Shown piece by piece: positions 2,200 to 39,873 of a stretch of 45,386 nucleotides of DNA. Within the stretch, counting starts at the first letter, position 1; each line of letters begins with the position of its first letter. The notes below the pieces were generated by a model. It had not been told where the DNA came from. It saw only the letters and a program-made list of their open reading frames with translations, and did not search any database. Both the position numbers and the translations under genes were made by a program. The DNA comes from Planctomycetota bacterium (GTDB lineage: Bacteria > Planctomycetota > Phycisphaerae > WQYP01), in NCBI GenBank assembly GCA_021790475.1, contig JAJYDU010000002.1, forward strand, positions 1 to 45,386. The letters are read 5' to 3'.

Positions 2200-3231
2200 A
2201 TGGATACGGTTACTCTGCCCCAGCGCGTTGTGGAATTCCTGAATTATCTGCAATTCGAGCGGCATTTCTCGAATTACACCAGCAAATGCTACAGCGCCGA
2301 TTTACGCCAGTTCGGACGATTCCTGGCGGGACTGCCTGATACATTCACGCTGCCCGGCGGCCATCCGGTGATCCCGCCTTCGACTTCAAACATCAATGAT
2401 CACGCTCCGGTTGTTCCCGAACCTCCGCCGGAAGATATCGAACGGCTTCTGTTGAACTCGAACGCCGACGACGTACGGAATTATCTCCGCCACATGCGCG
2501 AGCATGATTATTCCAAGGCGACGGTTGCCCGTAAGCTGGCCACTCTTCGCAGTTTCTTCAAATTTCTCAATAAACGCGGCTTGACCGGCAACAACCCGAT
2601 GCTGACGATCCGGACTCCCAAGCTGGAAAAACGCCTGCCCCGGTTCATGACCGAAGAGCAGGTTACCCAGCTTCTGGGGACTCCCAAAGATACCGATCTG
2701 CTCGGCGCCCGCGACAAGGCCATGCTTGAAGTAATTTACAGCAGTGGTTTGCGTGTGAGCGAGCTTGTCGGTTTGAATATACAGGATGTGGATTTTGTTG
2801 GAGCCGCGCTTAAAGTTCGTGGAAAAGGCCGCAAGGAACGTCTGACTCCGGTTGGCCGGACCGCCCTGGCGGCGATTGAGAAATACGTGCGGATGCGCGG
2901 CGCTGCGAACTCCGACGACCCGACCGGCGTGCCTTTGTTCATCAACAAACACGGCCAGCGTCTGAGCACGCGTTCCGTCCGCCGCAAACTCGATAAATAC
3001 CTCATCGAGGCGCATCTGGACCTGGATATCAGCCCCCATACGCTACGGCATAGCTTCGCCACGCACATGCTCAACCATGGCGCGGACCTGCGGGCGGTCC
3101 AGGAGCTGCTCGGCCACCAGAGTCTGAGCACCACCCAGATATACACGCACCTGACTACCAAGCGACTCCAGGATTCCTATGAAAAGGCCCACCCCCGGGC
3201 CAACGAGTCGCACGAACCAGCCGGGTCGTAG
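2200..3231 (+). CDS. Tyrosine site-specific recombinase, XerC/XerD type
   Basis: N-terminal SAM-like core-binding block (FLNYLQFERHFSNYTSKCYSADLRQF ... ATVARKLATLRSFFKFL). Catalytic blocks GLRVSELVGL, HTLRHSFATHML and LLGHQSLSTTQIYTH. The ORF opens at 2098; the ATG at 2200 (MDTVTLPQR) fits the family N-terminus better. Confidence 0.9.
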   Translation: MDTVTLPQRVVEFLNYLQFERHFSNYTSKCYSADLRQFGRFLAGLPDTFTLPGGHPVIPPSTSNINDHAPVVPEPPPEDIERLLLNSNADDVRNYLRHMREHDYSKATVARKLATLRSFFKFLNKRGLTGNNPMLTIRTPKLEKRLPRFMTEEQVTQLLGTPKDTDLLGARDKAMLEVIYSSGLRVSELVGLNIQDVDFVGAALKVRGKGRKERLTPVGRTALAAIEKYVRMRGAANSDDPTGVPLFINKHGQRLSTRSVRRKLDKYLIEAHLDLDISPHTLRHSFATHMLNHGADLRAVQELLGHQSLSTTQIYTHLTTKRLQDSYEKAHPRANESHEPAGS

Positions 3232-3251
3232 TCATAGTTTCCCGATAACAC

Positions 3252-3301
3252 AACAACAGGGCCGCGGCGGATGGCCTCTTAAGCGGCGGCCCTGTTGTTT
3301 T
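3252..3301. terminator. Bidirectional intrinsic terminator-like hairpin between convergent xer and ffh
   Basis: A 14-bp perfect stem, aacaacagggccgc (3252-3265) pairing with gcggccctgttgtt (3286-3299). A T-run follows on the + strand, and the hairpin lies 7 nt from the ffh stop on the other side. Confidence 0.6.
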
Positions 3302-3307
3302 ATGAAT

Positions 3308-4762
3308 TTATTGTCCACGCCGGCGCTTATCCCGCAGGCGGCGTTTCTGTTGCGGCGTTAACCGCCCGCCGCGCGGCTTGCATCCATCCGTAGGTATGGG
3401 CAATTCGCCGGCGGCCAGAGCTTGCATGTCCATCGTGCCAAAACTCTGCATCAGGCGCATGCGCCCGCCCATGGAAAGTCCGCCCAATTTCTTCGCCATA
3501 TCGCGCGCCGCGGCGAAACCCTTGATCAGTCGTGAAACATCTTCGGTCGCCGCGCCGGATCCGCGGGCGATGCGCCGACGGCGCGAACCGTCCACCATAT
3601 CCGGATTTTCACGCTCCCTGCGGGTCATGCTTTGAATAATCGCTTCAACGCGGTCCAGCTCTTCTTCCGTAACTTGCGCGTTCTTAAGCGCTGCGCCGGC
3701 GCCGGGCAACATTCCCAGTACCTGCTTCATCGGCCCCATTTTCCGGAGGGATCGCATCTGGTCGAGAAAATCATCCAGCGTGAATGTGGCTTTGGCCAGT
3801 TTTTCCTGCATCCGGGCCATTCTGGTCTGGTCGAATTCCTGTTGGGTCTTTTCCACCAGCGTGAGAACGTCGCCCATGCCCAGCATGCGCTGGGCGATAC
3901 GATCCGGATGGAACTCTTCGAGCATCTGGAGTTTCTCGCCCACGCCGAGAAATTTGATTGGTTTGCCGGTGATGGCCTTGACCGACAGCGCCGCGCCGCC
4001 GCGGGTGTCCGAATCGAACTTGGTAAGAATCACACCATCGAGTTCCAGTTGGGTATTGAAGGCGCGGGCGGAATTGACGGCGTCCTGGCCGACCATGGAA
4101 TCGACCACAAGGTAAATTTGATGCGGCTTGACCACCTGGCCGATCTGCCGGAGCTGATCCATCAGAGGAGTGTCCAGATGCAGGCGGCCGGCGGTGTCGA
4201 GAATAACCACATCTCGGCCATTTTGGCGGGCGGAATCGACAGCCCGGCGGCAGATACTCACGGGACCGGCCTGCGGATCCTCCCGATAAACCGGCGTTTC
4301 AATCTGTCCGCCCAGCGCGACCAGTTGATCGATGGCGGCGGGGCGCTGGGTATCGGCCGCCACCAGCAGTGGATTTTTCCCCTTGCTTTTCAGGTAGAGG
4401 GCCAATTTGCCGCAGGTGGTCGTTTTTCCCGACCCTTGCAGGCCGCACATCATGATGATGGTGGGGGGGGGATCGACAAAATACATGCGGGTATCGACCG
4501 GTCCCATGAGGGCGACCAGCTCGTCGAAGACGATTTTGACCATCTGTTCGCCGGGCTGGAGCGAGGCGATGACTTGCGCGCCAATGGATTTCTCCAGCAC
4601 CCGCCGGGTGAAATCCTGCACCACTTCATAATGAACATCCGCCTCCAGCAGGGCGTTGCGGATGTCGTCCATCGCCGCCCGGACATTTTGCGCGCTGATA
4701 CGTCCGCGGCCGGACAGGTTGCGCAGCAGGTTTGAAAAACTCTCGGTAAGATTCTCGAACAT
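3308..4762 (-). CDS. ffh: Signal recognition particle protein Ffh
   Basis: N domain, an SRP GTPase G domain (GLQGSGKTTTCGKLA, DTAGR, TKFDSDTRGG) and a Met-rich M domain with a basic tail. Confidence 0.95.
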   Translation of the reverse strand: MFENLTESFSNLLRNLSGRGRISAQNVRAAMDDIRNALLEADVHYEVVQDFTRRVLEKSIGAQVIASLQPGEQMVKIVFDELVALMGPVDTRMYFVDPPPTIIMMCGLQGSGKTTTCGKLALYLKSKGKNPLLVAADTQRPAAIDQLVALGGQIETPVYREDPQAGPVSICRRAVDSARQNGRDVVILDTAGRLHLDTPLMDQLRQIGQVVKPHQIYLVVDSMVGQDAVNSARAFNTQLELDGVILTKFDSDTRGGAALSVKAITGKPIKFLGVGEKLQMLEEFHPDRIAQRMLGMGDVLTLVEKTQQEFDQTRMARMQEKLAKATFTLDDFLDQMRSLRKMGPMKQVLGMLPGAGAALKNAQVTEEELDRVEAIIQSMTRRERENPDMVDGSRRRRIARGSGAATEDVSRLIKGFAAARDMAKKLGGLSMGGRMRLMQSFGTMDMQALAAGELPIPTDGCKPRGGRLTPQQKRRLRDKRRRGQ

Positions 4763-4810
4763 CTGATTTCTCCCGGCTCGATCGCCGTGCGGCGCCGGCT
4801 CCCGTTAACT

Positions 4811-6067
4811 TTACTTGTTGACCACCGGAAGGGCGATACCGCCGGATGCGCCGGTCGTTTTTTCAGCGGTTATTTTGGCGTAACCGGAACCAGGTTCGCC
4901 TGTCGGATCCGGAGGAATGATATCCACCACCTTCTCGCCCAGGCGAGCCTTGCCGGCTCGCACCTTTTCTTCAAATGCCTGGCAGTGCTCCAAAAGGGTA
5001 TCGAGAATCCGGTCCTCCGGCACATTGGCCACCTTTTCACCCTGCACGTAAATGATGCCGCGTTTGTCGCCGGCGAAAATCGCCACGTCCGCTCCCTCGC
5101 ACTCGCCCGGACCGTTCACCACACAGCCCATCACCGCCACCTTCATGGGCAGGGTTATTTCCTGCTTGAGTTTGCGGTTTACCTGCTGCACCAGCGTGAA
5201 CAGGTCCACCTGGATGCGCCCGCAGGTGGGACAGGCGATCAGTTCCGCGCCCCGGCGCTGGCGCAAGCCCAGTACATAGAGCAGCTCCAGGCCATCCTGC
5301 ACCTCGTAAACCGGATCGCTGGCGTAACTGATGCGAATGGTGTCGCCGACGCCGCTGGCCAGCAGGGTTCCCAACGGCGCCACGCTGCGAATAGTTCCGG
5401 TTTCCCTCGGTCCGGCATGAGTTACGCCCAGGTGCAGCGGATGATCGAATCGCCGGGAAATTTCGCTGTAGGCGTCGATGACCAGCAGCGGATCGATTGA
5501 TTTGGCGGAAATCACGATGTCGTAAAAATTTCGATTGTAGAAAATATCCAGGTATTCTTCGAGTTTGCTGATCATGATTGCCAGCAACCGGCCGTGCCGG
5601 TTGTCGCCGAATACCGCGCCCAGTTCGCGCCGGCGCTTCTGCTTGTCGCGCCGCTCCACGATGGATCCTTCATTCACACCCACGCGGATGGGCAGACTCC
5701 GTTCGCGGCAGGCGTCGATAACCATTTCCACCTGTTTGCGGTCGTTGATATTGCCGGGATTCAGGCGTATTTTGCTTACGCCCGCCGCAATCGCCTCCAG
5801 CGCCCGCTGAAAATGGAAGTGCACGTCGGCCACAATGGGTACGCTTACCTGTTTGATGATTTCCGGGAGAGCTTCGGTGTCTTTTCGTTCCGGCACGGCC
5901 ACGCGCACAATGTCCGCCCCGGCCGCGGCAAGTTTGTTGATCTCGCGCACGCAGTTGTCGATGTCATGCGTGTAACCGCTGGTCATCGACTGCACCGTCA
6001 CGGGAGCGCCGCCGCCGATAAGAACATTGCCCACTTTTACCTGCCGGGTCTTGCGCCGGGAAATCAT
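4811..6067 (-). CDS. ispG: 4-hydroxy-3-methylbut-2-en-1-yl diphosphate synthase (IspG/GcpE)
   Basis: RRKTRQVKVGNVLIGGGAPVTVQSMT N-terminus and the C-terminal Fe-S Cys motifs (ACPTCGR ... MGCVVNGPGE). The ATG at 6067 is preceded by GAGGAA; the ORF track start at 6115 adds 16 unlikely residues. Confidence 0.93.
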   Translation of the reverse strand: MISRRKTRQVKVGNVLIGGGAPVTVQSMTSGYTHDIDNCVREINKLAAAGADIVRVAVPERKDTEALPEIIKQVSVPIVADVHFHFQRALEAIAAGVSKIRLNPGNINDRKQVEMVIDACRERSLPIRVGVNEGSIVERRDKQKRRRELGAVFGDNRHGRLLAIMISKLEEYLDIFYNRNFYDIVISAKSIDPLLVIDAYSEISRRFDHPLHLGVTHAGPRETGTIRSVAPLGTLLASGVGDTIRISYASDPVYEVQDGLELLYVLGLRQRRGAELIACPTCGRIQVDLFTLVQQVNRKLKQEITLPMKVAVMGCVVNGPGECEGADVAIFAGDKRGIIYVQGEKVANVPEDRILDTLLEHCQAFEEKVRAGKARLGEKVVDIIPPDPTGEPGSGYAKITAEKTTGASGGIALPVVNK

Positions 6068-6177
6068 AATTATGGTTCCTCTTATTGTTGCCGCGTAAGA
6101 GCGCGTACAAAACAATATATTCTAGCGGCAAATGGCCGTGAACCAAAGCTCCGCCGGCAATTGTGCGCGTTTTTGTT

Positions 6178-7161
6178 TTACTGATAGCCGTTCGGGTGCG
6201 CCTGGAACCAGCGCCAAGCCGACTCCACAATCACATGCAGGTCGGTAATTTTCGCCTTCCAGTGAAAATCGCGGGCCATGCCCTCGGGCGAGGCGAAAAG
6301 CGCCGGTGGATCGCCGGGGCGGCGCGCAACCTGGCGCGTTGCGATGTCTTTACCCGTAACCGCCCGGCAAGCGTCGATTACTTCCCGCACGGAATAGCCC
6401 CGCCCCACGCCCAGGTTGTAAAACAGTCCCCGGCCAGGCTGGAGATTTTCCAGCAATACCAGGTGCGCCTCGGCCAGGTCCCACACGTGAATATAATCGC
6501 GAACGCAGGTGCCGTCGGGCGTGGGGTAATCCGTACCGAAGATTTCCATGCTTGGACGCCGCCCCATGGCCACCTGGAGCACAATGGGAAGCAGGTGAGT
6601 TTCGGGGCGATGATCTTCCCCGATGGTTCCATCGAGCGCCGCGCCGGCAACGTTGAAGTAACGCGGCGCGGCGAATGCCAGATTTTCCGCCCTGGCCACA
6701 TCCAGCAGGATGTGTTCCACCATCAGCTTGGATTGGCCGTAGGGGCTGATGGGGCGTTGCGGCATGTCTTCCGTGATGGGGACCTTTTCCGGTTCGCCGT
6801 AGGTGGCGCAGGTGCTGGAAAAAACCAGCTTCTTGATGCCGGCAAGGTGCATCGCATCCAACATGCCGATGGTGTTGGCGACGTTGTTGCGGTAATACTT
6901 TCGTGGATCAGCCACGCTTTCGTCGACGTAGGCGCTGGCGGCGAAGTGCATGACCGCCTCTATTTTTTCGGTCATGAATACCGCCGCTAGCCGCGCCACG
7001 TTGGCGCAGTCCAGCACCACCAGTTTCGCCTTTGGATGAACCGCCGCGCGATGGCCCATTCCCAGGTTGTCAATTGCGATGACGCGGTGGCCGCGTTCCA
7101 CCAGCAGCTTGACCGCATGGGACCCGATATAACCCGCCCCGCCAATGACCGCGATATTCAT
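6178..7161 (-). CDS. galE: UDP-glucose 4-epimerase
   Basis: MNIAVIGGAGYIGSH Rossmann start, a YGQSK catalytic Y-x-x-x-K and typical length (327 aa). Confidence 0.93.
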   Translation of the reverse strand: MNIAVIGGAGYIGSHAVKLLVERGHRVIAIDNLGMGHRAAVHPKAKLVVLDCANVARLAAVFMTEKIEAVMHFAASAYVDESVADPRKYYRNNVANTIGMLDAMHLAGIKKLVFSSTCATYGEPEKVPITEDMPQRPISPYGQSKLMVEHILLDVARAENLAFAAPRYFNVAGAALDGTIGEDHRPETHLLPIVLQVAMGRRPSMEIFGTDYPTPDGTCVRDYIHVWDLAEAHLVLLENLQPGRGLFYNLGVGRGYSVREVIDACRAVTGKDIATRQVARRPGDPPALFASPEGMARDFHWKAKITDLHVIVESAWRWFQAHPNGYQ

Positions 7162-21342: not shown

Positions 21343-22266
21343 ATGGCGGTTGAGTTTTGTCTTGCGCCGGCGCATCCATTTCCGTATCAGGGAAGTAAGC
21401 GTAAGCTCGCACCGTTTATTCTGCGATTCATTCCAAAGAACACGGCGTGTTTGATTGAACCATTTGCCGGTTCGGCTGCGATATCCATTGCCGCCGCCGC
21501 AACCGGACGAGCGGAAAGATTCCTTCTCAATGACATTCACAGGCCTTTGATTGATCTATGGTGGGAGATATTGAGCCGGCCGCGCCTTCTTTGTGAAAAA
21601 TACCACCGGCTTTGGAAGGAACAAAAAGGGCAGGAACGGCTTTTTTATGACAAGACGAGGACTCGGTTTAATAGAGAGCACCGTCCGGAAGACTTTTTAT
21701 ATTTGCTCGCGCGTTGTGTCAAAGCCGCCGTGCGCTACAATGGCAAAGGTGAATTCAACAACAGTCCCGACAACCGGCGAATCGGAATGCATCCTGCTGC
21801 GATGCTCAGGAATATCATGGGAGTTTCTCAACTCCTGTCGGGGCTTACCGATGTCCGATGCGACAATTACACCACGGTGCTTGCGACCGCCGGAGAAATC
21901 GACCTGGTTTATATGGATCCTCCTTATCAGGGTGTATGTGGTACGCACAATCATCGCTACCATTCGGGGGTCGATTTACATGAGTTTGTGGAATCCCTGG
22001 CCGCCCTCAACCACCGGTCTGTTTCCTACATCATCAGCTACGATGGACGGACGGGCCGGAAAAGTCATGGCCGAAAATTGCCCCGCTTCCTGAATCTGGT
22101 TCACGAAGAAATATTCGCCGGCCGTTCGACGCAGGCGACATTACTCGGTCGTAAAGATGAAACTTTTGAATCAATCTATCTCTCGCCGGCATTGGTTCAG
22201 CGGCTGGGTAAAGATTTCAAACATCTGCCAATCTCATCGCAGCCGCAATTACAGCTTTTTGCGTAA
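21343..22266 (+). CDS. N6-adenine DNA methyltransferase, Dam-like (D12 class)
   Basis: PYQGSKRKL, EPFAGSAAIS (motif I), LNDI and VYMDPPYQG (motif IV) occur in alpha-class order. GC is lower than in the flanks. Confidence 0.88.
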   Translation: MAVEFCLAPAHPFPYQGSKRKLAPFILRFIPKNTACLIEPFAGSAAISIAAAATGRAERFLLNDIHRPLIDLWWEILSRPRLLCEKYHRLWKEQKGQERLFYDKTRTRFNREHRPEDFLYLLARCVKAAVRYNGKGEFNNSPDNRRIGMHPAAMLRNIMGVSQLLSGLTDVRCDNYTTVLATAGEIDLVYMDPPYQGVCGTHNHRYHSGVDLHEFVESLAALNHRSVSYIISYDGRTGRKSHGRKLPRFLNLVHEEIFAGRSTQATLLGRKDETFESIYLSPALVQRLGKDFKHLPISSQPQLQLFA

Positions 22267-22280
22267 AGACCACGGCGCGA

Positions 22281-23018
22281 TCATTGAGCGTTTGATTCCT
22301 TCTGTGAGGCGCGTTCATGGGCGATTCGTTTGATCCAATCCGCAATAGAGAAACATTCTTTTGCGGCGCGTTGGGCGATGGTTTTGAATTCTTTAACCTC
22401 TTCCCCTATCCATTCTAAATCCACACGGCGGCGCTGCTCCATGGCGATGTGTTCATATTTTTCGGGCGAAGCCCAGAAACATTTCGAGCATATCCTTTTA
22501 TCCCTCAGTTCCCGCCAGTTTCGACAATGCTCACAGGACCAGCTCTTGATCCTTTGGAGCCAAACGGAAATTAACATGAAAGCAACGCCGGCACATTCGG
22601 ATTCATGTTGGTCGCCGGTAACTTGATACGGGATGCGGTGATCCAGGGAAAGTTGCCTGCGTTCCAGCGGTTGTCCTGTAATGGCACATCGTCCTTTCTG
22701 TTTCACATACAGGTCATTTTTAAAAGCTTTCGAAAATGCCATTCGCCCGAGTTTGGCGGTGTCGATTTTCGATGGATCCCCAAAACGATAGGCGCCAATG
22801 GATCTTCCCCTGCTGTCCTTGACCCTGTAAGTCTCCAACGGAATTCCCATATCCAATACATCCATTCGAGCTCGCGGTGGATGATGGTAGCCATAGACTT
22901 CCCTGAGTTGTTCAGTTGTTACAAACCCATGTTTCAGAATGTGATCCAAAACCACTCTAGCGCGATGCGCCGTGATCGTGCTTATCTTGGCCATGAGCTT
23001 TGGGTCGATGTTACCCAT
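22281..23018 (-). CDS. HNH-type endonuclease, putative Type II restriction partner of the adjacent methyltransferase
   Basis: GRCAITGQPL...LSLDHRIPY (the His of HNH) is followed by the Cys pairs CEHC and CSKC. An N-terminal wHTH-like region is present. The gene is convergent with the MTase, with a 14-bp gap between the stops. Confidence 0.6.
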   Translation of the reverse strand: MGNIDPKLMAKISTITAHRARVVLDHILKHGFVTTEQLREVYGYHHPPRARMDVLDMGIPLETYRVKDSRGRSIGAYRFGDPSKIDTAKLGRMAFSKAFKNDLYVKQKGRCAITGQPLERRQLSLDHRIPYQVTGDQHESECAGVAFMLISVWLQRIKSWSCEHCRNWRELRDKRICSKCFWASPEKYEHIAMEQRRRVDLEWIGEEVKEFKTIAQRAAKECFSIADWIKRIAHERASQKESNAQ

Positions 23019-32518: not shown

Positions 32519-34060
32519 ATGACTACGACAGGGTATCTATTTGAGCAGATGACAAAGCCAATAGATATTAGCACAAGTTCAATTTTAAGCCCCGCAGGAT
32601 ATTCGGGGCTTTATGCTTTCCACAAATATTGGGGCAAGAAACCCCATGAACCCTTGGCTTACGTGATTCAAGAGCTTACTTCACCCAATGACATCGTGCT
32701 CGATCCGTTTGTAGGATCGGGAACCGTTGCGCGCGAGGCAGTGGCACGAGACCGACGTTTTATTGGCTTCGATATTAACCCTTGTGCCATTGAACTCACG
32801 AAGCTAATTCTTAATCCTCCCGAATTGGAGGAGTTGCATGCCTCATTTAAACAGGTTCGGAGAGTGGCGTATGACGCCGTCGAAGAGAGTTACAGGCTTG
32901 AAGACGGCCGGGCTATTGCCACCCACTACCTCTGGGACGCCAATCAACTCAGCAAGGTCTGGGTCAGATCTCGGCATAGGACAGCTAGAAGAGGAGAGTT
33001 CCCGCCAACTCTGCATGACATTAAGCTCGCAAAAACTTTTGCAGAGTACCGCAGTAGGAAAGTGCGCCTGCCCCGCTTTTTCACGAATGGACGAATTAAT
33101 GCCAAACCGACATTGACTTTATCCGATTTATTTACGGGCCGTGCTCAAAGGAACATTGATATAATCCTAGACGCTATCGATACATGTCCGGTAGCAACCA
33201 GATTATCTCTGCGCCTCTGCCTTACTGCCGCCTCAGGTCAGATGAGTAAGATGGTTTTCGCGGTAACAAACCGCGGCAAAACAAAGGGAGAAGTGAATAA
33301 ACGAATGGAAGTGGGCAGTTGGGTGATAGGATTCTGGCGCCCGCGGCTCCACCTTGAGGTCAACGCTTGGAACTGTTTCGAGAATCGCGTTGCGAAACTA
33401 CTTAATTCGCTTAAGCCTGGCTCTCGGGATCAGATATCTCCCATTTCAGGCGGCCTCGGAGATTTGCTCGCCTCCCGGGCAAAAGCGCATCTGTCTTGCG
33501 GTGATTGCCGTGAATTATTACGAGACATTCCGGACGACACCGTCGATTTAATTCTTACCGACCCGCCGCATGGCGATCGAATTCCATATCTTGAATTGAG
33601 TGAAATATGGAACTGCATACTGGGGTTCGATGTCGATTTTGAACGAGAGATCGTTTTTTCTAACGCAAAGGAAAGGGGTAAAAGTTCCGATGTGTTTTCT
33701 GCCGAGATCGGCCAGGGATTTCGGCAGTTGCACAGAGTACTGAAACCCGATGGAATAATGCTGATTATATTTAATGCCCGTGATACGGATGAGTGGCAAT
33801 CAATTCGTGCATTGTGTAGGCATGGATTTAGACAAAACCCGCTGTGGAGCTACCTTGGTTATTTTCCCTGTCAATATTCCGCTACTTCGGTGGTTCAGGA
33901 TAATAGAGCGGGAAGCATGTGTTTCGACCTTGTCTTAGCATTCGCCCGATATGACGCTCCGAAGGACAATAACTCCGTCCTGAATAAATTGCGTTCAGTG
34001 CCAAGTTGGACATCGGATGCCCCAGTGCAATTATCGGGAGGAAAAGCTGATGACATTTGA
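32519..34060 (+). CDS. N6-adenine/N4-cytosine DNA methyltransferase with AdoMet motif first and DPPH catalytic motif last
   Basis: FHKYWGKKPHEPLAYVIQELTSPNDIVLDPFVGSGT (the motif X/I block typical of PF01555 enzymes) is at residues ~34-70. LILTDPPHGD (motif IV) and VLKPDGIMLIIF lie near the C-terminus, with ~290 aa between them. GC is low. Confidence 0.85.
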   Translation: MTTTGYLFEQMTKPIDISTSSILSPAGYSGLYAFHKYWGKKPHEPLAYVIQELTSPNDIVLDPFVGSGTVAREAVARDRRFIGFDINPCAIELTKLILNPPELEELHASFKQVRRVAYDAVEESYRLEDGRAIATHYLWDANQLSKVWVRSRHRTARRGEFPPTLHDIKLAKTFAEYRSRKVRLPRFFTNGRINAKPTLTLSDLFTGRAQRNIDIILDAIDTCPVATRLSLRLCLTAASGQMSKMVFAVTNRGKTKGEVNKRMEVGSWVIGFWRPRLHLEVNAWNCFENRVAKLLNSLKPGSRDQISPISGGLGDLLASRAKAHLSCGDCRELLRDIPDDTVDLILTDPPHGDRIPYLELSEIWNCILGFDVDFEREIVFSNAKERGKSSDVFSAEIGQGFRQLHRVLKPDGIMLIIFNARDTDEWQSIRALCRHGFRQNPLWSYLGYFPCQYSATSVVQDNRAGSMCFDLVLAFARYDAPKDNNSVLNKLRSVPSWTSDAPVQLSGGKADDI

Positions 34061-35000
34061 GGAGGCGAATAGGCTCTTCAGAGACAACCAGATTCTTGCG
34101 CTGGCTGCAGATCCAGATGGCCTGCGATATCTTTATATTCGGTCTCTTTGTAGAAAGGAGCATCTTTTGCAGCTTTTCAGCGCTGCACACGTCCCTCCCA
34201 GTCCTACTGTCAGCCGGGAGCTATTTCGTGAGGCCTTTAATACGCGTATTATCACTTTAGAATTAATTCGACGCGTTATCCGGCAGATTTTCGAGGCCTC
34301 CAGGCGAAGTCGAAGACATGATGAAGAAACCTTGATAAATAACTTATACCGATTGGATGTGTTCGATTGGGGTGGACTTCACCAGAACAGCCTGGAAAAG
34401 ACGATTGTAAACAACTACGTCAAAAAGATAAAAGAGTATGATGCGATATGCGATAAGATCGATAATGACTTGCACATGAGCCTCCGAGGTTACGTCCTCA
34501 ATTCCTGGTATAACCATTGGACATCCATCATCATTGAGGACACATTCCGCGATCACGATAAGGTGTTGCCCTCCGTTGGACTCGTTAAGAAAATTGATTT
34601 CTTCATTAACAATACTCCTTTTGATCTGAAGGTCACTTATTTTCCAGAGGGATTTGTTAAAGACCAAAGGCGAAACACTGGCAGAAAGTCCGAACTTACC
34701 TTGCTCAAGAGAAGTGCGCGGACTAACAACATCGCGATCAATCGCGAGTTGCCGGAAGCACGACTCCTGCAAGATATGTGGATGAAACACAATGACCATC
34801 CGAAAGCGCGGGACATAATTGATGACTTGCGCGAATTCCGCTTGCAGCTTCTCCGAGAATGCCGGGAGAATCCGGTCGCGCTTATCAAATGGCTTTATGA
34901 AAATCAGGGAGAACGCAGGTTTGACGCATCTAATCGAATATTTTTAGTTCTGTACGATCGAATGAATTTCTTTGACTCGTGGAAATTAAAAAGGGCATAG
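34050..35000 (+). CDS. Putative PD-(D/E)XK restriction endonuclease cognate to the upstream methyltransferase
   Basis: The ATG at 34050 follows GGGAGG and overlaps the MTase 3' end by 11 nt. Candidate nuclease core: IIIEDTF ... KKIDFFINNTPFDLKV (D-x9-D-x-K). I recognise no family, so the function is inferred from position and motif only. Confidence 0.4.
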   Translation: MTFEEANRLFRDNQILALAADPDGLRYLYIRSLCRKEHLLQLFSAAHVPPSPTVSRELFREAFNTRIITLELIRRVIRQIFEASRRSRRHDEETLINNLYRLDVFDWGGLHQNSLEKTIVNNYVKKIKEYDAICDKIDNDLHMSLRGYVLNSWYNHWTSIIIEDTFRDHDKVLPSVGLVKKIDFFINNTPFDLKVTYFPEGFVKDQRRNTGRKSELTLLKRSARTNNIAINRELPEARLLQDMWMKHNDHPKARDIIDDLREFRLQLLRECRENPVALIKWLYENQGERRFDASNRIFLVLYDRMNFFDSWKLKRA

Positions 35001-35245: not shown

Positions 35246-35506
35246 TCAATGACCCCTGATTGGTAATTCATCGCCTTGGCGTGGTGATTCTCCACCGCGC
35301 CGCTTCATAATACGGTCGAAGGCCTTGAAGTCCGCCCGGGCTTTGCGATCCGTAAAAAAGCGGGCGGTTTCAAATGCGGATACTTTCTCCGCCACCGCTG
35401 TGACCACGAATTGGTTAATGCTGGTGCGGTCCTCCTTACTCAACCGCGTAACCGCCTGCTTGAGCGATGCCGGCAACCGCAGGGGATATGTGCTTGTTTG
35501 TTTCAT
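35246..35506 (-). CDS. Ribbon-helix-helix (Arc/CopG-like) antitoxin
   Basis: STYPLRLPASLKQAVTRLSKEDRTSINQFVVTAVAEKV is a typical RHH beta-strand plus two helices. The start overlaps the stop of the PIN gene (ATGA). Confidence 0.7.
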   Translation of the reverse strand: MKQTSTYPLRLPASLKQAVTRLSKEDRTSINQFVVTAVAEKVSAFETARFFTDRKARADFKAFDRIMKRRGGESPRQGDELPIRGH

Positions 35507-35925
35507 GGTGTGATCCTTGTTAAGGCCTCCCTCGGAAGCAATAACTCAACTGCAAACCGAGAGGGTACAGTCCCAAAATCGCGCTTATTAAACGTTACGA
35601 GGACATCCGCATGGCCGTTGACCGCCGTTTCGAGCACCATCTCGTCACCCGGATCGCGAAGCTGCGGCCGCCAGAGAAAATGCGACTCCACCGGCTCGAC
35701 CATGGCAATCACAGCGGACAGGAAAATGTCAATCTCCCGGCTCGACAGTCCGGATGCCAAACAATGCTTCGGTTCGCGGCACACGGCCTCGTACTCCAGA
35801 GCGAGCGGTACACTTGCCAGTAGCGTAACCAAGCCTTGTCGCGCCGCCCGCAAAAGGGCCGCCGAGGCTCCGCCGGGGCTGCGCATACCGGCAACCACCA
35901 CATCCGTGTCCAGTACCACCATCAT
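35503..35925 (-). CDS. PIN-domain toxin (VapC-like ribonuclease)
   Basis: MMVVLDTDVVVAG (first acidic residue), a mid-protein E, and ...GDEMVLETAVNGHADVLVTFNKRDF (distal acidic residues). Length is 140 aa. Confidence 0.8.
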   Translation of the reverse strand: MMVVLDTDVVVAGMRSPGGASAALLRAARQGLVTLLASVPLALEYEAVCREPKHCLASGLSSREIDIFLSAVIAMVEPVESHFLWRPQLRDPGDEMVLETAVNGHADVLVTFNKRDFGTVPSRFAVELLLPREALTRITP

Positions 35926-35975
35926 ATCGTATATAATATCATATTGCGGGTGATTTTACAATAGCCGCAATATGC
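35926..35975 (-). promoter_or_regulatory. Sigma-70-like promoter overlapped by a 10-bp inverted repeat (probable TA operator)
   Basis: The minus strand reads CATATTGCGG-CTATTGTAAAATCAC-CCGCAATATG-ATATTATATACGAT-ATG. TTGTAA, a 17-nt spacer and TATTAT give a -35/-10 pair. The perfect inverted repeat CATATTGCGG/CCGCAATATG (35940-35949 and 35965-35974) brackets the -35 element. Confidence 0.55.
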
Positions 35976-36407
35976 CGTCGACGAGGACGGGCGTGGCAAT
36001 AAATCCGTACCATGGTACCGGGATGCCCCATCCTCTTTTAGCCGCGTGTGCTTGCACCGCGCGTTTTACGCGGAGAGGCCACTGGTGCTAAGAGAGCAGT
36101 AGGTAGAAAGTAGCCCGCAGGCAGGGTGTTCCAGTAAGGCAACAGCCGCTATGCTTGTTCCATCTGAATTTGCTCGCCTGCTCACCGGTGCGGTTGTATC
36201 CGCGTGATTGGAGATGCGGAGGTGGCGGAAACACGAAGTGACTTTCACGGCGCGTTGCGGTGCGATATGCAGCCCGTTTTGCCCACTGGTTGAACTTGCT
36301 GGAAAATCGCCATCCCTATACCATTGCATGAAATCAAATTGGCGAGCCGCTTTCGCCGCCGACGGAGAAATTGGATGGAAAATGACCTGCGGGAATTGGA
36401 GAAGGGA

Positions 36408-36424
36408 TTGGCCGAAAGGCCGTG
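36408..36424 (+). repeat. Left copy of the 17-bp direct repeat TTGGCCGAAAGGCCGTG
   Basis: An exact 17-mer also occurs at 39594..39610. It contains a GGCC-GAAA-GGCC mini-hairpin. Confidence 0.7.
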
Positions 36425-36469
36425 AACGGCTACCTTTTTTCCACCGAATCGAATCCGAGGAATCGTGCT

Positions 36470-38164
36470 ATGCCCAAAATTGATGCCAAAGAGAAAGCGA
36501 TCCGTGATGTATTCCATCGAGACTATGCGTTTTCGATCCCTGCCTACCAGAGACCCTACAGTTGGGGAATTGATCAGTCCAAAACCCTGTTGAGTGACCT
36601 TCTGGCTGCGAGCGCCAATTTTAATGTCGGTATGTCGCCCGCGCTGGTTACGCCCTATTTTCTAGGGAGCATCGTCGTCATTAAGCAGGAGCATCAATCG
36701 GAGTCACAAATCATAGATGGCCAGCAACGCCTAATCACTCTTTCGCTGGTGATTTCAGCCCTGCGCACGCTTTTTTCTGATGATAAACGGAAAGCTACTT
36801 TCGGTGAGCTAATCCTTGAGCAGGGCGATCCTTTGGTAGGGACGCGAGATCGTTGCCGACTCACGTTGCGAGAGCGTGATCACGCTTTCTTTGAAACCAA
36901 TTTTCTGCGCCACCGCACACTCGACCACTTGCAGAGCCTGCTGGCCGGACGACTTACTGACCCGCAAACGCATCTGGCTGAAAATGCACAGGCCCTCTTG
37001 ACCGAATTATCCAAGTATGACGAGCACCGCCTTGAAGCACTTGCCGCCTTCCTACTTCAACACACCTATCTCGTTATCGTTTCCACTGCGAATCTGGAAT
37101 CCGCCTTTCGCATTTTTTCCGTCTTAAATGATCGTGGTCTCGATTTGACAGTCGCGGACATTTTGAAATCAGAGATCATCGGCCGCATCACTGCCAATCA
37201 AGACGCCTATGTAAAGAAATGGGAGGACGCCGAAGAGCAGTTGGGAACCCAGCCGTTTGCCGCGCTCTTCTCACACATTCTAATGATTCACGACCGGAAA
37301 AAGCTCAGTGCTACGGTACTGGAGGGTTTCCGCAAGGCATTTCCGGATATCAATTCTAAGGAATTTATCGATAAAGAGTTACTGCCACTGGCCGATGCCA
37401 TGGTGGTCATCCTTCGAACCAGTTTTGAATGTGCCGATAGCACCATCAAAAAACAAGCCAATCAGGCCCTTTCCTGGTTGTTACGTATCGGAAATCGGGA
37501 TTGGGTGCCCGTCGCGTTAGGTTTGATCACACATTATACTGACAAGCCTGCATTGGTTGCGAAAAAATTGCTGGAGTTGGAAAAATTGGCCGCCATTCTC
37601 TGGTTGAACCGATTTGACGTTAATGGTCGCATTGGCCGATACGGCTCAATTCTGGAACAGATTGAGCAAGATGAATCGAAGATCGGCGATATCGCGGCGC
37701 TGCTTGCCTCCAGCGATGAGAAAAAGATCGCCTCGGATGTGATTGCTGGGGACATTTATAACCTGACTCCCACACCGAAGCGCACATTCGTCTTGCTCCG
37801 TTTAGACGCAGCGCTATCATCCGGCGAAGCGATGTACGCTTTCGACAGGACCATCACGGTCGAACATGTATTGCCGCAAACACTCACAGACGGCGAGTGG
37901 ATGCGATGGTGGCCCGATTTGACTGTTTGTGAGGAATGCATTCACAAACTTGGTAATCTGGCACTCCTGAATCGCCGCCAGAATTCGGCGGCTAAGAATT
38001 GGGACTTCTCGAAGAAAAAGAAGGAATATTTTCAGAATAATACCGGTGGTAGTCCATTCCAGATCACATCCCGGGTTCTGAAGGAAACAGAATGGACGCC
38101 TGCTGTGTTTCGGCGGCATCAAGCCGATATGGTACAGAAATTGAAGGAAATTTGGGATATTTAA
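36470..38164 (+). CDS. GmrSD-family (DUF262 + DUF1524) nuclease, putative Type IV modification-dependent restriction enzyme
   Basis: N-terminal ParB-like DUF262 blocks (IPAYQRPYSW, IIDGQQRLITLS). C-terminal His-Me finger DUF1524 blocks (TVEHVLPQ, LGNLALLNRRQNSAAKN). The ATG at 36470 (MPKIDAKEKAI) is preferred; the ORF-track start at 36422 is a GTG. Confidence 0.85.
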   Translation: MPKIDAKEKAIRDVFHRDYAFSIPAYQRPYSWGIDQSKTLLSDLLAASANFNVGMSPALVTPYFLGSIVVIKQEHQSESQIIDGQQRLITLSLVISALRTLFSDDKRKATFGELILEQGDPLVGTRDRCRLTLRERDHAFFETNFLRHRTLDHLQSLLAGRLTDPQTHLAENAQALLTELSKYDEHRLEALAAFLLQHTYLVIVSTANLESAFRIFSVLNDRGLDLTVADILKSEIIGRITANQDAYVKKWEDAEEQLGTQPFAALFSHILMIHDRKKLSATVLEGFRKAFPDINSKEFIDKELLPLADAMVVILRTSFECADSTIKKQANQALSWLLRIGNRDWVPVALGLITHYTDKPALVAKKLLELEKLAAILWLNRFDVNGRIGRYGSILEQIEQDESKIGDIAALLASSDEKKIASDVIAGDIYNLTPTPKRTFVLLRLDAALSSGEAMYAFDRTITVEHVLPQTLTDGEWMRWWPDLTVCEECIHKLGNLALLNRRQNSAAKNWDFSKKKKEYFQNNTGGSPFQITSRVLKETEWTPAVFRRHQADMVQKLKEIWDI

Positions 38165-38179
38165 ATAGGAGATGTCCAA

Positions 38180-38662
38180 ATGGCTCGGCGAGTATTTTTC
38201 AGCTTTCACTATACCAATGACATCTGGCGGGCTAACCAGGTGCGGAATTGCAATGTGGTCGCCGGAGCGGATGTCGCAGGTTTTTTTGACCACTCGGAGT
38301 ATGAGGAAGCCAAAAAGAAAGGGCATGATGCAATCGAACGGATGATTCTGAAAAATCTGGACGGCACCAGTGTAACGGTGGTGTTGATCGGCAGCGAGAC
38401 GGCTAACCGTCCTTGGGTGAAATTTGAGATTGAGGAATCGATCAAGAGGAAGAATGGCCTGCTTGGCATTCATATACACCATTTGAAGGATCGGGCGGGG
38501 AACTCGGAAATTTTTCGTGGCAGCAAACCAGCGGTGCGAAGGGATATTGAATTCCCGGCCTATGACTGGGACAAGAATCTTGATCGCTTTCGGCAGGAAA
38601 TCGAAGCTGCAGGCAAGCGTTCTGACGCATTGAGAAATCCGCCAAAATCATCTTGGCCATAG
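38180..38662 (+). CDS. ThsB-like TIR domain protein (DUF1863-type TIR-like fold)
   Basis: MARRVFFSFHYTNDIWRANQVRN ... TSVTVVLIGSETANRPWVKFEIEESIKRKNGLLGIHIHHLKD. The FFSFHY start, the WV-x-x-EI glutamate block and the GIHI strand match my recollection of Bacillus Thoeris ThsB. AGGAG lies upstream, and the gene starts 15 nt after the GmrSD-like stop. Confidence 0.75.
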   Translation: MARRVFFSFHYTNDIWRANQVRNCNVVAGADVAGFFDHSEYEEAKKKGHDAIERMILKNLDGTSVTVVLIGSETANRPWVKFEIEESIKRKNGLLGIHIHHLKDRAGNSEIFRGSKPAVRRDIEFPAYDWDKNLDRFRQEIEAAGKRSDALRNPPKSSWP

Positions 38663-38834
38663 TAGGTTCTTTTGCGAGCCTGTTTAGGCGCAAGTCCGCC
38701 CGTCAAGTTGGCGCTTGTTATGCTGAAAAATCCTCCTGCATAGGTGCCCTTGGGACTGCGGTAACAGGGAAACAGTGCATGCGCTGGGACTCTCGGTGTT
38801 TTCGGAAACCATGGCGGAATGCCGGAGGCGGAAC

Positions 38835-39245
38835 GTGACTGACAATGGCAAGCTGGCGCACCTTGGTTTCGTCCAGGGGGCCGTCAATCGAATGGCGGGT
38901 GATTCCTTCCTGGTAAAAGGGTGGTCGGTCACGCTGGTGACTGCTATCGTGGCATTGGCCGCCAAAGGTGGCGGTCCTTGCCTTATCCTTGTAGCTTATC
39001 CCCCAACCGTCGTGTTCTGGTTACTCGACGCCCATTTCCTCCGCCTAGAGCGGCTTTACCGTAAGCTGTACGACACCGTTCGGATGAAACAAGCGGAGGA
39101 CATAGATTTCTCTATGGACACAAGTGTTTTCGATAGGGAGGTGGCGTCATTTCGGGCGACGATGTTTTCGCGGACGCTTGTCTGGTTTCACGGAATCCTC
39201 TTGGTTTTTATAACCGGCGCATTGGTTATTGCTATGACGGTATGA
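38835..39245 (+). CDS. Small three-TM membrane protein of unknown function (candidate effector)
   Basis: Hydrophobic segments WSVTLVTAIVALAA, CLILVAYPPTVVFWLL and LVWFHGILLVFITGALVIAM, separated by an amphipathic/charged helix (HFLRLERLYRKLYDTVRMKQAEDIDF). The GTG at 38835 lies 6 nt after GGAGG (38824-38828). The ORF opens at the ATG at 38775. Confidence 0.55.
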   Translation: MTDNGKLAHLGFVQGAVNRMAGDSFLVKGWSVTLVTAIVALAAKGGGPCLILVAYPPTVVFWLLDAHFLRLERLYRKLYDTVRMKQAEDIDFSMDTSVFDREVASFRATMFSRTLVWFHGILLVFITGALVIAMTV

Positions 39246-39593
39246 GATGTAAAGACATGAGTGAATGCGGACACGACAACCGGTCAGGATATTGGGACAT
39301 CCATCTTTTTCATGGAAAATCTCTCAGGATCACTCAAACACAACTCCTCTACGTGTCCCACTCCCCCAAAATGACACCGCTTTGTAGTATAGACCCCGAT
39401 CCGGGAAAGGCAGGGGAGTCGCCCGCCTGCCGGTAGGCAAGGCAGAAAAAAACGGTTAAGCAATGAGCAGAGTAGGGCGCGCTCAAGAATAACCAGTTCA
39501 AATACGCCTTGTAGGCGATACCGTGTAGTTCCAGTCTCCATGAAAGTCGTGGCGTCAATCGAAGGCCGGCCAGTTGCTCGTCGCGAGTCTGTT

Positions 39594-39610
39594 TTGGCCG
39601 AAAGGCCGTG
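39594..39610 (+). repeat. Right copy of the 17-bp direct repeat TTGGCCGAAAGGCCGTG
   Basis: Exact match to 36408..36424. It lies in the non-coding stretch between the 3-TM gene and dacB. Confidence 0.7.
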
Positions 39611-39873
39611 TAAGATTACCAGACTGGTTGCCCCGCCAGACGAATGCTCTTCCTTGCATCTGACCGCCCTGGGAATCGAAACGTGGCACTCGCTATCTAT
39701 TGAGATAGGCCTCATTGGCGGTTTCAAAATCGCTGGCGGTAAATTCCATCGTTCCTGCCCGCGTACCAATTTGCTCTCCCGCCCGCTTGCTCTTATGCTC
39801 ACCGGCTCGTTGGTCCAGCCGCGTGGCGGACCGTTTCCGAGCAAGGATGGCAAGGATTTTTCGAGGTGCATGG

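Follow-up and report, generated by a model that had tools for sequence, protein, structure and literature searches.

A Probable Type V Thoeris Pair beside a GmrSD-Family Nuclease in a Planctomycetota Defense Island

Introduction

Which protein takes the place of ThsA when a ThsB-type TIR protein is encoded in a defense island that seems to hold no ThsA at all? This question is raised by a contig of a Planctomycetota bacterium (JAJYDU010000002.1, positions 1 to 45,386; the whole of this 45,386-nucleotide stretch is referred to as the window), in which a gene for a GmrSD-family nuclease, a thsB gene, and a short gene for a protein with three transmembrane (TM) segments follow one another. The first-pass annotation of this DNA had offered three readings, namely that the very small TM protein acts as a minimal effector in the membrane, gated by a signal, that the TIR protein is coupled to the nuclease, or that independent defenses merely abut, and had regarded the first two as undescribed architectures. 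We argue here that thsB and the small TM gene (38180-38662 and 38835-39245) very probably form a type V Thoeris pair that lies beside an independent GmrSD nuclease, and that the "missing ThsA" is, as judged by homology, the small three-TM membrane protein. The island itself is an ordinary defense island with an architecture that is already known and not a new one: the combination of a TIR protein with a minimal three-TM protein was published in December 2025 as type V Thoeris (Yirmiya et al., bioRxiv 10.64898/2025.12.03.692087) and had earlier been a PADLOC candidate, PDC-M50.

The argument turns on the following features:

36470-38164, forward strand: GmrSD-family (DUF262/DUF1524) nuclease gene, 564 amino acids (aa) from the ATG at 36470 or 580 aa from a GTG at 36422
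38180-38662, forward strand: thsB, encoding a ThsB-type TIR protein of 160 aa (open reading frame listing; Pfam, PADLOC, and PDB matches)
38426-38428, forward strand: codon for Glu83, the first E of FEIEES and predicted catalytic Glu of the TIR protein (invariant alignment column)
38663-38834, forward strand: thsB-thsF intergenic spacer of 172 nt that has GGAGG 5 nt ahead of the start codon GTG (reading of the sequence)
38835-39245, forward strand: thsF, encoding a three-TM protein of 136 aa, PADLOC PDC-M50A (BLASTP, hhalign, PADLOC, AlphaFold 2, and TIR neighborhood)

The three open reading frames (ORFs) for the GmrSD, TIR, and three-TM proteins are all real, co-oriented, and situated where the first-pass annotation had placed them, and its description of a low-GC patch with a 15-nt gap is borne out by the ORF listing, the domain matches, and the GC values: the GmrSD stop codon is separated by 15 nt from the ATG of the TIR gene, ahead of which AGGAG is found, and the island genes have GC contents of 0.45-0.535 as compared to 0.574 for the whole window and 0.60-0.65 for the flanks. 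Its statement that the island is devoid of SLOG, Macro, and SIR2 domains likewise stands, as none was found in the scanned island and flanking ORFs, with the very small ORFs not scanned exhaustively.

The Small Membrane Protein

Type V Thoeris consists of ThsB and the three-TM protein ThsF, the latter annotated as DUF2270 (PF10028), and has been verified for the systems of Bacillus thuringiensis DAR 81934 (B.t.) and Bacillus sp. 1NLA3E, which defend B. subtilis and whose TIR proteins both make 3'-cyclic ADP-ribose (3'cADPR) on infection (bioRxiv 10.64898/2025.12.03.692087). Added 3'cADPR was toxic only to cells with the B.t. system, and the 3'cADPR sponge Tad1 abolished B.t. type V defense (bioRxiv 10.64898/2025.12.03.692087). 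The AlphaFold 3 model of ThsF is a homo-heptamer that forms a ring and has basic pockets between its protomers (interface predicted template modeling score, ipTM, 0.78) (bioRxiv 10.64898/2025.12.03.692087). A literature search for ThsF or type V Thoeris returned only this preprint, and no paper was found that uses the name "PDC-M50".

The verified B.t. ThsB was recovered together with its contig as protein P0121, which is 100% identical to the sequence given in Table S1 of the preprint. At a distance of 13 nt downstream of it, a gene for a protein of 141 aa (L085:4773-5198) fits the consecutive IMG gene number of the effector. BLASTP aligned the window TM protein to this protein with 43% identity over 129 aa (E 2e-36), and a profile of its family matches it with an hhalign probability of 100% (E 8e-49). 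Because of this match to the verified B.t. effector in both comparisons, we identify the window TM protein as ThsF, and the suggestion of a minimal signal-gated membrane effector gains its footing from this clear homologue. Plasmids were also searched by tblastn in two independent ways, with the B.t. ThsB of Table S1 and with the window TM protein as query, and the matches lay next to each other on the same replicons, those of Priestia (NZ_CP023318), Klebsiella (NZ_AP022022), and Terribacillus (NZ_CP008877).

The three-TM ORF ends at 39245 and has possible starts at 38775, 38811, and 38835, of which the GTG at 38835 is most likely the true start of thsF, giving 136 aa, since GGAGG lies 5 nt upstream, the N-termini of the family align there, and the gene call is the same in L115, an independent ENA assembly that is 99.7% identical to the window over 7.7 kb. 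Hydrophobic segments are located at about aa 25-43, 46-64, and 115-133, so that a protein of 136 aa with three TM helices is found, as in type V systems, and the AlphaFold 2 monomer (from a 26-sequence alignment) is all-helical with a mean predicted local distance difference test score (pLDDT) of 96.6. The family is well conserved at about 132-140 aa. A search of the protein database gave 248 homologues at E<=1e-3, and at least 519 matches were confirmed in genomes that represent GTDB species, because of which thsF is judged to be a real gene and not a chance ORF. All family-invariant residues, H9, R19, K28, and R76 among them, are present in the window protein, which looks intact in sequence and model.

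In the family databases, the protein is recognized as PADLOC PDC-M50A (E 3e-44), while no Pfam or NCBIfam family was found for it. At E<=10, hmmscan gave no match to PF10028 (DUF2270) for either the window ThsF or the verified B.t. ThsF; three of 26 family members match this model weakly (best E 0.018), and the only further Pfam matches seen in the ThsF searches, to DUF3278 and 8xMP, were weak too. Since the verified ThsF misses PF10028 too, the label does not discriminate and is not counted against type V membership. For the same reason, annotation pipelines that rely on Pfam or NCBIfam searches, which cannot recognize ThsF, will miss the effector and go on labeling loci of this kind "Thoeris without ThsA". 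An affinity of the TM protein to SLATT proteins, which the first-pass annotation had also raised, was not found, as all 26 family members lack a match to the SLATT families of Pfam, even at E<=10. No recognizable nucleotide-binding domain was found in ThsF, and a Foldseek search of the AlphaFold 2 monomer against the PDB gave nothing below E 2 and only generic helical hairpins.

The TIR Protein

The second constituent of the pair is recognized by Pfam as ThsB_TIR (PF08937, E 3.6e-24) and by PADLOC both as ThsB (PDLC00431, E 5e-52) and as PDC-M50B (E 2.7e-47), and no NCBIfam family was found for it. Its closest solved structures are those of B. cereus ThsB (PDB 6LHY/9B7D, E 4.4e-26), to whose TIR domain it is 51% identical, and it shares 43% identity with a TIR protein of Table S1 that is listed as "DUF2270 - Type V". 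In a 12-sequence TIR alignment, Glu83 of FEIEES is invariant and aligned with the catalytic Glu of the YEI motif of B. cereus ThsB; the catalytic role of this residue is established for ThsB and for TIR NADases. Next to the membrane protein gene there is, in other words, a co-oriented TIR gene with an intact predicted catalytic Glu, as expected of type V.

The signal is somewhat more likely 3'cADPR than anything else, because the window TIR is closest to B. cereus ThsB and is also related to a type V TIR of Table S1: the product of B. cereus ThsB is 3'cADPR, and Table S1 assigns TIR proteins of the window's class to "DUF2270 - Type V" (bioRxiv 10.64898/2025.12.03.692087). The Thoeris type cannot be read from the TIR by itself, however, since the nearest plasmid homologues of B.t. 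ThsB (H1 and H2) occur in type I-like (SIR2) and Macro contexts.

Conservation of the Pair

The first-pass annotation had proposed to look at the conservation of the gene neighborhood across genomes. In the corresponding survey, the best 80 of at least 519 genomic ThsF matches were fetched as loci, which span Planctomycetota, Cyanobacteria, Bacteroidota, Chloroflexota, Pseudomonadota, Bacillota, archaea, and others; the nearest relative of the window ThsF in a genome belongs to a Planctomycetota metagenome-assembled genome (MAG; L001). With eleven TIR seeds, a co-oriented TIR gene was detected at most 1 kb from ThsF in 68 of the 80 loci, by which the TIR-TM pair turns out to be kept across phyla. 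A TIR gene of the window type stands immediately downstream of ThsF in 51/80 loci, often overlapping the TM gene, and most loci without it carry divergent TIRs (TIR_2, TIR-DUF4062, or a TIR followed by an AAA_5 ATPase). Among the 12 loci that remain, two are cut by contig ends and two have DUF4062-STAND or SLOG neighbors. Both gene orders occur, with TIR ahead of TM in L085, the verified B.t. locus, and in the Klebsiella locus L082. The thsB-thsF order of the window is the same as in the verified B.t. system, and the opposite order is commoner in the sampled loci.

Several of the surveyed loci are of interest in their own right. In a Heliomicrobium MAG (L032), a gene at 4162-6306 encodes an nSTAND1 NTPase whose C-terminal three-TM domain resembles ThsF (residues 586-712, hhalign probability 99.65%), and genes for a stand-alone ThsF and for a TIR-DUF4062 protein precede it (L032:2037-2498 and 2579-4228). 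The ThsF module can thus be fused directly to a STAND NTPase. In two other loci (L080:5406-6134 and L076:10323-13172), ThsF is followed by a SLOG (LD_cluster3) or a DUF4062-STAND-TPR protein with no recognizable TIR, and ThsF may serve as effector in non-TIR contexts. The mobilizable Priestia megaterium plasmid NZ_CP023318 (L081, 4001-6653), in turn, carries ThsF followed by a B.t.-ThsB-like TIR and a TIR_2 protein, a type V arrangement with more than one ThsB, beside a Dcm methylase and a SNF2-related gene. That the ThsF module occurs beside many TIR clades and SLOG proteins and in an nSTAND1 fusion may interest those working on effector modularity.

The GmrSD Nuclease

The gene upstream of the pair encodes an N-terminal DUF262 domain (Pfam GmrSD_N, PF03235, E 1.9e-31) with the DGQQR NTPase motif kept at aa 83 (window 36716-36730) and a C-terminal DUF1524 His-Me finger nuclease domain (GmrSD_C, PF07510, E 3.7e-24) with the motifs EHVLPQ, GNLALLN, and NSAAKN at aa 465-510 (window 37862-37999), the features by which the GmrSD family is recognized. 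PADLOC matches it with the single-gene models "Orf5" (PDLC02686, E 7e-154) and HEC-06 (E 1e-60), its PDB matches are DUF262 proteins and SspE, and no NCBIfam family was found for the protein. Enzymes of the GmrSD family are self-sufficient single-gene defenses.

For a reciprocal test, 28 metagenomic loci that encode relatives of the window GmrSD (37-76% identity) were inspected. None of them has a TIR or ThsF gene in its flanks, and even the closest relatives (73-76% identity) lack the TIR/ThsF pair. Conversely, an adjacent GmrSD gene was found in none of the 80 ThsF loci, the single GmrSD-like (DUF262-like) ORF being about 4.6 kb distant (L061). Because of these results from both directions (0/80 and 0/28), the nuclease is best regarded as an independent, self-contained type IV (modification-dependent) restriction-like nuclease and not as a conserved partner of the pair. 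The claim that independent defenses merely abut thus holds for GmrSD relative to the pair, and fails for the TIR relative to the TM protein with which it so regularly co-occurs.

A transcript may nevertheless be shared by GmrSD and thsB-thsF, since no terminator was detected between GmrSD and thsB, in a scan that is uninformative: promoter and terminator counts for 35900-39800 lay within the expectation from shuffled sequence, by which no operon boundary can be drawn. In the same scan, again with counts within shuffle expectation, no convincing promoter or terminator was found within the 172-nt thsB-thsF spacer.

Proposed Mechanism and Competing Explanations

By analogy with the verified systems, the stand-alone TIR protein ThsB would sense phage infection and, via Glu83, make a cyclic ADP-ribose signal from NAD+, with 3'cADPR as the likeliest product. 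ThsF protomers would form a ring in the membrane, in which the signal would bind to positively charged pockets between the protomers, and its binding would lead to membrane disruption and abortive infection. GmrSD would be part of the same island, maybe of the same transcript, and stand outside the signaling system. The identity of the signal, the oligomerization of ThsF, membrane toxicity, and defense by the window pair are all inferred from the experiments that the preprint reports on homologues.

A different view takes all three genes as one system, in which the signal or NADase activity of the TIR regulates GmrSD via its ParB-like NTP-binding domain and the TM protein serves as an anchor or as a further effector. 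The 15-nt distance between GmrSD and thsB, their shared orientation, and the absence of a terminator-like site between them speak for it, and the order PIN-GmrSD-TIR-TM (with a PIN toxin gene further upstream) is repeated in L115, though this contig is 99.7% identical and of the same lineage; nowhere else outside the window was the three-gene arrangement found. The proposed coupling of the TIR to the nuclease, however, receives no support from the neighborhoods, by which such an integrated system is largely refuted, and a GmrSD-Thoeris composite was accordingly rejected; in addition, GmrSD-family enzymes act as single-gene defenses and are so modeled in PADLOC HEC-06. The preprint, moreover, makes no mention of DUF262 or GmrSD (bioRxiv 10.64898/2025.12.03.692087). 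We consider this view very improbable, and give just as little credence to the variant that GmrSD and thsB-thsF are co-transcribed and functionally coupled in this particular lineage. If they were, GmrSD action on modified phage DNA could feed ThsB activation, which would make a layered restriction and abortive-infection unit.

Two further explanations concern the pair itself. The TIR protein could be a toxic, NAD+-depleting effector, with the TM protein as its sensor or membrane anchor, which would turn the logic of Thoeris around and do away with a diffusible signal. Many TIRs of bacteria are NADase effectors, and ThsF has no recognizable nucleotide-binding domain; the limitations section of the preprint allows for this in non-verified configurations (bioRxiv 10.64898/2025.12.03.692087). 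In the homologous verified system, however, the toxicity of 3'cADPR needs the system and defense is abolished by the sponge (bioRxiv 10.64898/2025.12.03.692087), the window TIR shares 51% identity with the TIR domain of B. cereus ThsB, a signal producer, and the association of ThsF with many unrelated TIR clades, SLOG proteins, and a STAND NTPase fusion is the pattern of an exchangeable effector module, so that this explanation appears improbable. Closer to the type V assignment, and a milder version of the coupling idea, is the possibility that the ThsB/ThsF pair may signal with a molecule other than 3'cADPR, be it 2'cADPR, canonical cADPR, or a new ADPR derivative. Many TIR clades are found among the partners of ThsF, the window ThsF is just 43% identical to the 3'cADPR-responsive one, and one of the verified type V variants did not respond when 3'cADPR was added, whereas both verified type V TIRs produce 3'cADPR (bioRxiv 10.64898/2025.12.03.692087), as does the closest characterized relative of the window TIR, B. 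cereus ThsB. A different signal is thus possible, if on balance unlikely.

Several observations weigh against a type V Thoeris pair beside an independent nuclease. The experimental support comes from homologues in Bacillus, outside this locus and its phylum. The variant just mentioned, that of 1NLA3E, shows that the signal may differ even among verified systems (bioRxiv 10.64898/2025.12.03.692087). The window ThsB (PF08937, 160 aa) belongs to another TIR clade than the 252-aa B.t. ThsB, the 172-nt spacer between thsB and thsF exceeds that of most loci, where the genes abut or overlap, and DUF2270 (PF10028), the label used by the preprint, is reached by neither the window ThsF nor the verified one. 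The 15-nt gap to GmrSD without a terminator fits co-transcription, with regulatory coupling as a possible consequence. Finally, thsF of L115 carries a frameshift in the last helix (TM3), due to a 1-nt indel in a T-run near 39209 (L115:5066-5110 versus window 39205-39245), which cuts the last 11 residues and leaves 125 instead of 136 aa; the cause may lie in a faulty assembly, or else the gene may be decaying in a sister population.

Relation to Known Systems

With verified type V Thoeris, the window pair shares the two-gene composition of a TIR protein and a three-TM effector of about 135-141 aa, the location in a defense island, the thsB-thsF order of the B.t. system, and a ThsF that is 43% identical over its full length. 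It differs in its TIR (160 aa, PF08937, and closest to the type I ThsB of B. cereus, as compared to 252 aa in B.t.), in its spacer of 172 nt, and in its host, a GC-rich environmental bacterium. PDC-M50 of PADLOC-DB v2 (A, the TM protein; B, the TIR protein) matches both window proteins over nearly their full length and differs in being a bioinformatic candidate without a mechanism.

Type I Thoeris (SIR2-SLOG ThsA and ThsB, B. cereus MSX-D12) has a TIR domain with 51% identity to that of the window, the same catalytic Glu, and probably the same signal, 3'cADPR, whereas the window has no SIR2-SLOG ThsA and the membrane protein that serves as its effector lacks a SLOG sensor. Types II (Macro-2TM, ThsC) and VII (SLATT, ThsH) likewise employ membrane-targeting effectors activated by a TIR product, which is His-ADPR in type II and canonical cADPR in type VII (bioRxiv 10.64898/2025.12.03.692087); unlike these, the window ThsF has neither a Macro domain nor detectable SLATT similarity. 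Types I, II, and IV were rejected as assignments, as no SLOG, Macro, SIR2, or caspase-like domain was found in the scanned island and flanking ORFs, and so was a SLATT effector of the kind found in type VII Thoeris and CBASS (cyclic-oligonucleotide-based antiphage signaling systems), with 0/26 family members matching SLATT at E<=10. The window GmrSD, for its part, resembles the type IV enzymes GmrSD, BrxU, and SspE as well as HEC-06 in its DUF262 and DUF1524 domains and its DGQQR and His-Me finger motifs, and differs from them in standing alone, without BREX or Ssp genes.

As a discovery, the locus matters little. It represents a divergent member of the type V family (43% ThsF identity, type I-like ThsB) from a GC-rich environmental bacterium, where the family has been verified only in Bacillus.

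Surrounding Genes

Upstream of the GmrSD gene, the island comprises four further genes:

32519-34060, forward strand: DNA methyltransferase (Pfam N6_N4_Mtase, E 1.5e-18; PADLOC MTase_II, E 4e-43)
34017-35000, forward strand: 327-aa ORF of unassigned family, overlapping the methyltransferase gene by 44 nt
35246-35506, reverse strand: small antitoxin-like gene, upstream of the PIN_3 toxin gene and overlapping it (NCBIfam YlcI_YnfO_N, E 4e-6, below cutoff)
35503-35925, reverse strand: PIN_3 toxin gene (Pfam PIN_3, E 7.4e-20)

The methyltransferase and the 327-aa ORF are probably a restriction-modification (R-M) module, in which the ORF, for which Pfam, PADLOC, NCBIfam, and PDB gave no match, may be a candidate for an uncharacterized cognate restriction endonuclease. 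Between this module and GmrSD stands the PIN toxin-antitoxin pair, with a GC content of 0.576, above that of its neighbors. A tRNA scan of the window, by which an integration site was sought, found no tRNA. A second low-GC patch, at window 21343-23018, holds a D12-class (Dam-like) adenine methyltransferase gene (21343-22266) and, beside it, a convergent 245-aa ORF without a Pfam family (22281-23018, reverse strand), which together may represent another R-M module.

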